Source: Escherichia phage S127 BCL3. Taken from it: 64,000 nucleotides of DNA. The notes beneath the pieces were generated by a model. It made no database searches, was not told the origin of the DNA, and was given only the letters and a program-made list of their open reading frames with translations. The stretch lies in sequence record OQ626344; one strand, written 5' to 3'. A program made the translations under genes and the position numbers. This document shows, piece by piece, positions 60,494 through 61,720 of the stretch (its first letter is position 1; each line of letters opens with the position of its first letter).

Positions 60494-61720
60494 TTAAAAA
60501 GGAATGTCATCATCAAAGGCGTATTGTGCTGGATTCTGATCCATAGGGTCATCTTCCTCATTATCTACAGGAGGGGCGTCTACAGTGTTTTGCTGTGGAT
60601 CAGTTTCCTGTTTGGCAGCTTGAGGTTCTTGATGGTCAGTGGCTCCCGCACCGTTCTTGATCCAATCATACAACGGTTCAGCAAGATTAGTCAAGACATC
60701 TTTTGCTTCTGCAGTAATTGCTACTGCAAAATCGTCAACTTTCGTTTTCTTGTCAATACGGCGACAAGCGTTCAATACCGCATTACCAACACTGGCACCT
60801 ACTTCATCTTCAGTTCGGTTGGTGGCTTGAGCGTACTCTTTCTTAAGCTCAATGGTGACAACGTGTAGTGTTTTAGCCACGTCTAAAGGATTGTCTACCT
60901 TAAACCCGCGATCCAGGATGATTTGCAAAGCATTAATGCTATGCCCTGTTTCTACACCGATAGGATCATAAGAAGATTTACGCTTACCACCAGAGCCTTG
61001 AGTGCCGTTCTCTGCCTTGGGTGGGTAGGCTTTAAAACCGCTGATAATATTCCCGGTGTCTTTGTCAACAATAGCTGCAACACGACCACCTACCACCAGG
61101 TCTTTAAGCTGCTCATCAGAGACAACCATAGCACCTTCGCCAATCTTGTGATCATTGACAGTAACCACGTTACCAACAATCTGAGTCACATCACCATAGA
61201 TGCGTAAAACGTCCTGATTGGCATTCTGCTGAGGTTTCTGCTTCTGGCCTTGTGATTGTGTGCCTTGTTGCTGTTTTTGTTGCTGTGGAGCTGCTGGAGC
61301 CTCTCCTGCCCCCAACTTAACCATTTTAGCCAGTGAGCCTTTGTAGTAGGTCTTACCGTTATGCTCATTTGCCTTTAAAGGGATATTTACGATCCATCCT
61401 GGCGTTACTGTTTCCCACTTGTCATCAATTTTAACAGAGACGGAGTCTTGATGACCAGGCTTAAGCAGCTTATCACCCATGCTGATCCAAACTTCTTCAC
61501 CACCTTGGAGCAGGTTATCAGAGGAGTCCAGTTCAGAAATCAGTAAAGAGATGGTGTGGCTGGATTCAATTTTCTTACCTTGCCACACAGTGGTTTTAAT
61601 ACCTGTTGTAGGATCAGCACCTTTAATGGGCTTGATGCTAACACGTTTAATCATACCGTGAGCCAGTAAAACAGTTTCACGCGGATTCATCGGGTTGGCA
61701 AATTGTTGAATAACGCTCAT
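60494..61720 (-). CDS. ssDNA-binding-like protein with Gln-rich linker and SSB-type C-terminal tail DDDIPF
   Basis: Start MSVIQQF at 61720 (AAGGAG RBS, TAATG overlap); C-terminus ...AQYAFDDDIPF identical to the E. coli SSB tip. Confidence 0.5.
   Translation of the reverse strand: MSVIQQFANPMNPRETVLLAHGMIKRVSIKPIKGADPTTGIKTTVWQGKKIESSHTISLLISELDSSDNLLQGGEEVWISMGDKLLKPGHQDSVSVKIDDKWETVTPGWIVNIPLKANEHNGKTYYKGSLAKMVKLGAGEAPAAPQQQKQQQGTQSQGQKQKPQQNANQDVLRIYGDVTQIVGNVVTVNDHKIGEGAMVVSDEQLKDLVVGGRVAAIVDKDTGNIISGFKAYPPKAENGTQGSGGKRKSSYDPIGVETGHSINALQIILDRGFKVDNPLDVAKTLHVVTIELKKEYAQATNRTEDEVGASVGNAVLNACRRIDKKTKVDDFAVAITAEAKDVLTNLAEPLYDWIKNGAGATDHQEPQAAKQETDPQQNTVDAPPVDNEEDDPMDQNPAQYAFDDDIPF

Follow-up and report, generated by a model that had tools for sequence, protein, structure and literature searches.

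A phage protein ending in the exact C-terminal tip of Escherichia coli SSB is probably the phage's own single-stranded DNA-binding protein

[quoted passage not shown] This protein is probably the phage's own non-canonical replication/recombination SSB, displaying the SSB C-terminal tip (SSB-Ct) of the host. In the bacterium, the SSB tail ending in DDDIPF is the docking site for more than a dozen host replication and repair proteins, the tip being the docking point for most bacterial genome-maintenance enzymes, and in ExoI, RecQ, and PriA the pocket that receives the SSB-Ct recognizes the free carboxylate of the terminal Phe. Here, we report the gene, its predicted product, and its family, starting from a 64,000-nucleotide stretch of the phage genome (OQ626344; referred to below as the window). 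An SSB-like protein with the host tip, as observation and as interpretation, is already known, having been published as a prediction in April 2026 for an ortholog in another phage; what is added here is an independent confirmation, the family-wide scope, the absence of a curated model, and the masking of the tip by a homing endonuclease.

The SSB-like gene lies on the minus strand at 60494 to 61720 (408 codons plus TAA), reading from an ATG at 61720-61718 to a TAA at 60496-60494, and is the ortholog of bas52_0087 (phage Bas52) and FV3_00195 (phage FV3), within PHROG 4477. The product ends in NPAQYAFDDDIPF; a 408-residue open reading frame (ORF) with an acidic C terminus closing in AQYAFDDDIPF had been described in an earlier note on this DNA, correctly except that the minus strand went unstated. 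The start codon is backed by an AAGGAG box 7 nt upstream, by a one-base stop/start overlap (TAATG) with the preceding ORF, and by the homologs, all of which have an MSV.. N terminus. The preceding ORF (61720 to 62085, minus strand; 121 amino acids [aa]; PHROG 7310, function unknown) shares one base of its TAA with the SSB-like ATG, is kept across Vequintavirus, and, judging from the overlap, is probably translationally coupled to the SSB-like gene. The upstream small gene was considered as a conserved partner and rejected, as the Vequintavirus ORF has no detectable homology to the ORFs in this position in phages ESCO5 and BME3, which are homologous to each other. Further upstream, a DUF7238 (PF23885) protein is encoded both in the window (62431-62751, minus strand) and on a distant phiTE-like metagenomic contig (L011:1791-2069), so the neighborhood is conserved across subfamilies. 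On the other side, a terminator-like hairpin (GCCCTGCCC-GAAA-GGGTGGGGC) with a T-run (60447 to 60478, minus strand) begins 16 nt past the stop codon; the hairpin itself spans 60478-60457, and in relatives bearing an endonuclease gene (see below) it sits after that gene. A 152-aa ORF elsewhere in the window (58782-59240, minus strand), labeled "phosphatase" in FV3 (FV3_00191), matches the Macro domain (PF01661) at an E value of 1.3e-7, over the gathering score, and may be an ADP-ribose-binding or -removing protein, potentially with a counter-defense role.

Residues 400-408 (60497 to 60523, minus strand) read YAFDDDIPF, an SSB-Ct-type tip. E. coli SSB ends in SNEPPMDFDDDIPF (sequence checked against PDB 1EQQ/4MZ9), and the exact E. 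coli tip DDDIPF claimed earlier is therefore borne out, with identity spanning the seven C-terminal residues FDDDIPF. Given the window's own amino-acid frequencies, about 5e-6 ORFs of the window would be expected to end in DDDIPF by chance, and no second ORF with a DDDIPF-type end was found among the ORFs of the 64-kb window. In close relatives, I-P-F is retained despite synonymous codon changes (ATT/ATA/ATC and TTT/TTC), which suggests that the tip is under selection, and the motif is still present in homologs with as little as ~25% identity. The tip follows a disordered, acidic, P/Q/A-rich stretch (residues 356-399; 60524 to 60655, minus strand) that corresponds to the intrinsically disordered linker in bacterial SSB; over residues 356-408, the last 53, the net charge is -13. 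The succession of a disordered linker and a D-D-D-[IL]-P-F tip with a free carboxylate is that of a bacterial SSB tail.

Outside the tail, no similarity to any SSB family was found at the sequence level in Pfam and PDB searches. Pfam gave no match for the protein or for 68 diverse members of its family, and neither the OB-domain models of bacterial SSB (PF00436 and TIGR00621) nor, in the Pfam searches, a T7 gp2.5-like (DUF2815) sequence or profile was matched by the protein. Sequence and profile searches of the PDB, made with the protein and with a 68-member family profile, returned nothing significant. A few of the 68 diverse members matched NCBIfam SSB models weakly (E values of at least 1.6e-5), presumably through the tail. 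PHROG 4477, annotated as "unknown function," was matched over residues 1-408 (E value, 2.6e-172). No curated Pfam or NCBIfam model covers the family, which would be better annotated "SSB-like" than "hypothetical protein."

In an AlphaFold2 model, built on a 34-sequence alignment, two OB folds of the ssDNA-binding class precede a four-helix bundle, and the tail is disordered (all coordinates that follow are on the minus strand). The N-terminal domain had been held not to be obviously an SSB OB fold, a view that stands at the level of sequence, where Pfam gave no match, and fails at the level of the predicted fold. Residues 1-138 (61307 to 61720) form an elaborated β-barrel (OB-fold-1; modeled over residues 4-138 with a pLDDT of ~85). 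It is joined by a disordered linker (residues 139-170, 61211 to 61306; pLDDT of <50 for residues 140-169) to a small, IF1/S1-like β-barrel (OB-fold-2; residues 171-232, 61025 to 61210; pLDDT of ~80). This linker, with 41% Q, is the Gln-rich segment of the earlier note, now placed between the two OB folds and not beside the tail. A basic disordered linker (residues 233-252, 60965 to 61024; pLDDT of <50 for residues 237-250) ends in the near-invariant pair Y251-D252 and leads into the four-helix bundle (residues 253-355, 60656 to 60964), which was predicted with a pLDDT of >90 (95.5 when modeled alone). The bundle is the best-conserved domain, with G259, H260, N263, H286, and G312 invariant and N313 nearly so, and is presumed to be an oligomerization module. 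Tail residues 359-408 are disordered in the model (pLDDT of <50). Of the two residues singled out by escape mutations in Bas52, D252 (codon at 60965-60967) lies just N terminal to helix 1, and Y351 (codon at 60668-60670), within the bundle, sits toward the C terminus of helix 4. The best Foldseek matches were weak (E values of at least 0.02) and of the same class, namely RPA70, the gp2.5-like DUF2815 structures 4klk (E value, 0.046) and 4jg2 (E value, 0.16), Deinococcus radiodurans SSB, phage p2 SSB, and IF1. The predicted barrels are OB folds of the nucleic-acid-binding class; OB folds are also present in proteins that do not bind ssDNA.

Set against E. coli SSB (PF00436, TIGR00621), the protein is alike in its class of OB-fold ssDNA binder, its long disordered linker, and its acidic FDDDIPF tip, and unlike in its folded part, which is without sequence similarity. 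Each of its 408-aa chains is predicted to combine two dissimilar OB folds with a four-helix bundle, whereas bacterial SSB has one OB fold, tetramerizes through the barrel, and, in E. coli, is 178 aa long. T7 gp2.5, as summarized in the DARNA preprint, likewise combines an OB fold with an acidic tail and a critical terminal Phe in a phage that brings a polymerase and a helicase-primase of its own; it and DUF2815 differ in giving no sequence match, and the window protein adds a predicted second OB fold and helical bundle. G36P of SPP1 and the SSB of HK620 are phage SSBs that need the tail for partner contacts and can interfere with host replication. G36P depends on its C-terminal tail, inhibits host replication, and has 48% identity to SsbA of its host, whereas what the window protein has in common with host SSB is the tip alone; the HK620 tail, NDYPPF, merely resembles the host DDDIPF, to which the window tip is identical.

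At the DNA level, the gene is 93 to 98% identical to its counterparts in 115 Vequintavirus genomes (rV5, FV3, B9-1, and others), where it is labeled "hypothetical protein" almost throughout. Some 16 to 21 records of "Campylobacter phage" (MG0656xx; host, Campylobacter jejuni) are also 93 to 97% identical to E. coli Vequintaviruses at this locus; mislabeling of the host is probable, or else contamination of the samples. A word-indexed search found 57 homologs with identities down to 34%, and an exhaustive profile search found 245 clusters at 50% identity, 168 of them with E values of ≤1e-10. The prevailing form of the family is 260 to 320 aa long; these short-form homologs, found in phi92-like and phAPEC8-like phages and making up most metagenomic members, are without OB-fold-2. 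Among 137 near-full-length representatives, the end is [ILVM]PF in 102 and a different acidic tail closing in F or W in 18, while 6 have one extra C-terminal residue and 5 have an extension of 10 to 25 aa. Over the nine C-terminal positions, the consensus is that of the bacterial SSB-Ct, D-D-F-D-D-D-I-P-F, and ESCO5 gp225, ending in EEPPMDFDDDIPF, agrees with E. coli SSB over the final 11 residues. Cultured carriers belong to Vequintavirinae, Stephanstirmvirinae, and CR3/phiTE-like phages, with one Acinetobacter phage, and their hosts are Gammaproteobacteria throughout. The family appears confined to large myoviruses of the rV5-like, phi92-like, and phAPEC8-like groups and to metagenomic relatives of these.

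The gene keeps company with replication genes. FV3_00195 lies ~4.4 kb downstream of the genes for DNA polymerase (FV3_00209) and helicase/primase (FV3_00210), and the replication repertoire of FV3 comprises a polymerase, the helicase/primase, a ligase, an exonuclease, EndoVII, and a second helicase. Neither the FV3 annotation nor a tblastn search of that genome revealed a further SSB; queried with E. coli SSB, the latter matched the tail of the SSB-like gene alone. In ESCO5 (phAPEC8-like) and BME3 (phi92-like), the short-form homologs, which their depositors named SSB, are found ~1.2 to 1.7 kb downstream of the gene for DNA polymerase. The FV3 DNA polymerase is annotated as two pieces (FV3_00209 and FV3_00206) split by an HNH homing endonuclease, FV3_00208 (L001:2180-5800; FV3 125992-124802), which is another mobile endonuclease within the same replication module as the SSB-like gene.

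The ortholog bas52_0087 (QXV84166.1) of phage RudolfGeigy/Bas52 (MZ501102) was studied in a preprint of 30 April 2026 (bioRxiv 10.64898/2026.04.29.721553), in which Phold annotated its product as "SSB-like" and the AlphaFold2 model placed a four-helix bundle and a disordered region after two OB folds, with a C-tip, FDDDIPF, that resembles the one of E. coli SSB (Fig. S6B legend). In that study, Bas52_0087 was required to trigger the DRT10 defense system; the escape mutants, D252V and Y351C, were missense only and lay at a putative oligomerization interface. Expressed alone, Bas52_0087 neither was toxic nor activated DRT10, and overexpression of SbcB (ExoI) attenuated DRT10 defense against Bas52 (bioRxiv 10.64898/2026.04.29.721553). 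The same inference on host SSB partners as is made here was drawn for Bas52_0087, and DRT10 was found to restrict Vequintavirinae and Stephanstirmvirinae (bioRxiv 10.64898/2026.04.29.721553). The window protein, also of 408 aa, differs from Bas52_0087 at 13 of 408 positions (96.8% identity), mostly in the linkers and tail, and has both D252, near-invariant in the family, and Y351. Both genes are without the endonuclease cassette described below, both products share the predicted order of OB-fold-1, OB-fold-2, four-helix bundle, disordered region, and FDDDIPF C-tip, and nothing substantive otherwise separates them. The DARNA and ApeA preprints were also considered as possible sources, and neither deals with the SSB of rV5-like phages.

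The Phe408 codon and TAA (60494 to 60499, minus strand) mark a site that is empty in the window and in Bas52 and that elsewhere holds an EndoVII/HNH-like homing-endonuclease cassette. The cassette is placed precisely behind the Phe codon in 52 of the 115 Vequintavirus genomes; in phage SYGMH1 it is ~640 nt long (occupied site, L007:2724-3370) and contains an endonuclease gene of PHROG 1035 ("endonuclease VII"/HNH-like). In 32 of the 52 (32/115, ~28%), among them rV5 (NC_011041) and the BASEL phages MaxBurger, DrSchubert, and EmilHeitz, the SSB-like gene has lost its stop codon, so that the protein continues for 15 residues beyond IPF and ends in DDIPFAPVGLQYGKSRIHAL. In the remaining cassette-bearing genomes, e.g., Bas51/WalterGehring, the stop codon is kept and the endonuclease gene begins 9 nt later. 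Counting several distant members along with the 32 close relatives, the extensions past the Phe codon are 13 to 22 residues long. The endonuclease ORF appears to start in the +1 frame at an ATG within the Q-Y-G codons of the SSB-like 3' extension (MAKVESTHCKRCIKCGE...; L007:2744-3367, with an equivalent in rV5). This upstream ATG restores an N-terminal Cys-rich motif common to the endonucleases of Bas51 and of the metagenomic phage L010, and the later Met chosen as the GenBank start of the endonuclease coding sequence in SYGMH1 and rV5 is probably wrong. The same arrangement of extension and endonuclease recurs in L010, whose SSB-like protein is only 34% identical, while BME3 and L011 have an extension with truncated remnants of the endonuclease ORF (MVETSCTVSNS* and MQTIQSTYCK*), which are footprints of endonuclease loss. 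In all, the loci besides SYGMH1 that show a cassette insertion or truncated remnants of one are L008, L010, L011, and L003. The 15-aa extension (APxGLQYGxxxIxAL) was examined as a functional motif (clamp-binding site, degron, or autoinhibitory cap) and rejected as such, being the 5' end of the endonuclease cassette; its apparent conservation arises because the endonuclease ORF overlaps it. The endonuclease insertion and the masking of the tip are new here relative to the preprint.

Because 32 of 115 viable phages read through the Phe codon and SSB-Ct pockets need a terminal carboxylate, canonical docking must be either not strictly essential or impaired at some cost, and with ~28% of relatives masked a strict need for a free C-terminal Phe is doubtful. 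The polymorphism between free (~72%) and masked (~28%) tips in Vequintavirus might be adaptive as opposed to a neutral scar, with masking altering how the phage SSB engages host partners, ExoI among them, and its sensitivity to SSB-sensing defenses such as DRT10, but we consider this improbable. If it were true, a selfish endonuclease element would double as an immune-evasion switch. Phages with naturally free tips (Bas51 and Bas52) and masked tips (rV5, MaxBurger, DrSchubert, and EmilHeitz) offer a ready genetic test of the free tip.

We favor, with some confidence, the reading in which the gene encodes the phage's own SSB. The two OB folds, going by their fold class, would bind ssDNA; the four-helix bundle, going by its conservation and by the preprint's escape mutations D252V and Y351C, would mediate self-association; and the long acidic disordered tail would display the copy of the host tip FDDDIPF. 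Through this tip, phage ssDNA coated by the protein may engage the host readers of SSB-Ct, such as ExoI (SbcB), RecQ, PriA, and the chi subunit of Pol III, and perhaps also the polymerase and helicase-primase that the phage encodes. Competition with host SSB for ssDNA and for partners would alter host ssDNA metabolism, and this altered metabolism may be what DRT10 senses. The earlier note had offered two alternatives: the protein could be an SSB of the phage, recruiting host enzymes, or it could mimic SSB and sequester its partners. The predicted OB folds, the replication module, the lack of another SSB in FV3, and the non-toxicity of the ortholog tilt the choice toward the former. It speaks against the favored reading that a phage encoding both a polymerase and a helicase-primase has no obvious need of a host partner. 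The tip could serve the phage's own replisome in the manner of T7 gp2.5, docking on the phage polymerase and/or helicase-primase with host partners irrelevant and with the identity to the host tip due to shared ancestry or to convergence on a ligand made of an acidic tail plus an aromatic end. The phage does encode its own polymerase, helicase/primase, ligase, and nucleases; the acidic tail of the T7 SSB, with its C-terminal Phe, binds the T7 polymerase and helicase-primase, as summarized in the DARNA preprint; and the HK620 SSB recruits the phage Sak4 through its NDYPPF tail. However, the family consensus is the bacterial SSB-Ct itself, beyond acidic plus aromatic, with ESCO5 matching E. coli SSB over the last 11 residues, and overexpression of host ExoI, an SSB-Ct partner, attenuates the Bas52_0087-dependent DRT10 defense. 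A replisome-directed tip is also compatible with host partners, so the two readings are not exclusive; a tip serving mainly the phage replisome seems to us a minority prospect, though the strongest of the competing accounts.

A dedicated decoy, soaking up host SSB-interacting proteins (e.g., ExoI or RecQ, which could attack phage DNA ends or intermediates) with ssDNA coating secondary or absent, would explain why an exact host tip is carried on a long flexible tail, why SbcB dosage modulates DRT10, which needs the ortholog, and would have a parallel in G36P of SPP1, a phage SSB able to inhibit host replication. SSB-partner contacts are essential in E. coli, yet host viability was unaffected when Bas52_0087 was expressed alone, so that essential SSB partners are unlikely to be strongly sequestered. 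A decoy would need far less than a conserved helical domain and two conserved OB folds, no other SSB was found in the reference genome (FV3), and masked-tip alleles are common; we regard a decoy as unlikely. A RecO-like recombination mediator or annealing protein, as opposed to a general SSB, would likewise have its OB fold ahead of a helical domain, but matches to RecO span only 75 to 89 residues, the OB part, RecO binds SSB-Ct and does not carry one, and no annealing-protein family was matched in the Pfam, PHROGs, and NCBIfam searches, which together leave this account very little room.

If the protein is the phage's own SSB, an exact SSB tip on an unrelated scaffold of two OB folds and a helical bundle would bear on how viruses plug into, or compete for, the SSB hub of their host. 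It would also be a target for defense systems, given that DRT10 needs Bas52_0087 to fire, and since DRT10 restricts both of the cultured subfamilies that carry the family, the whole family, beyond the Bas52 protein, may be a trigger.
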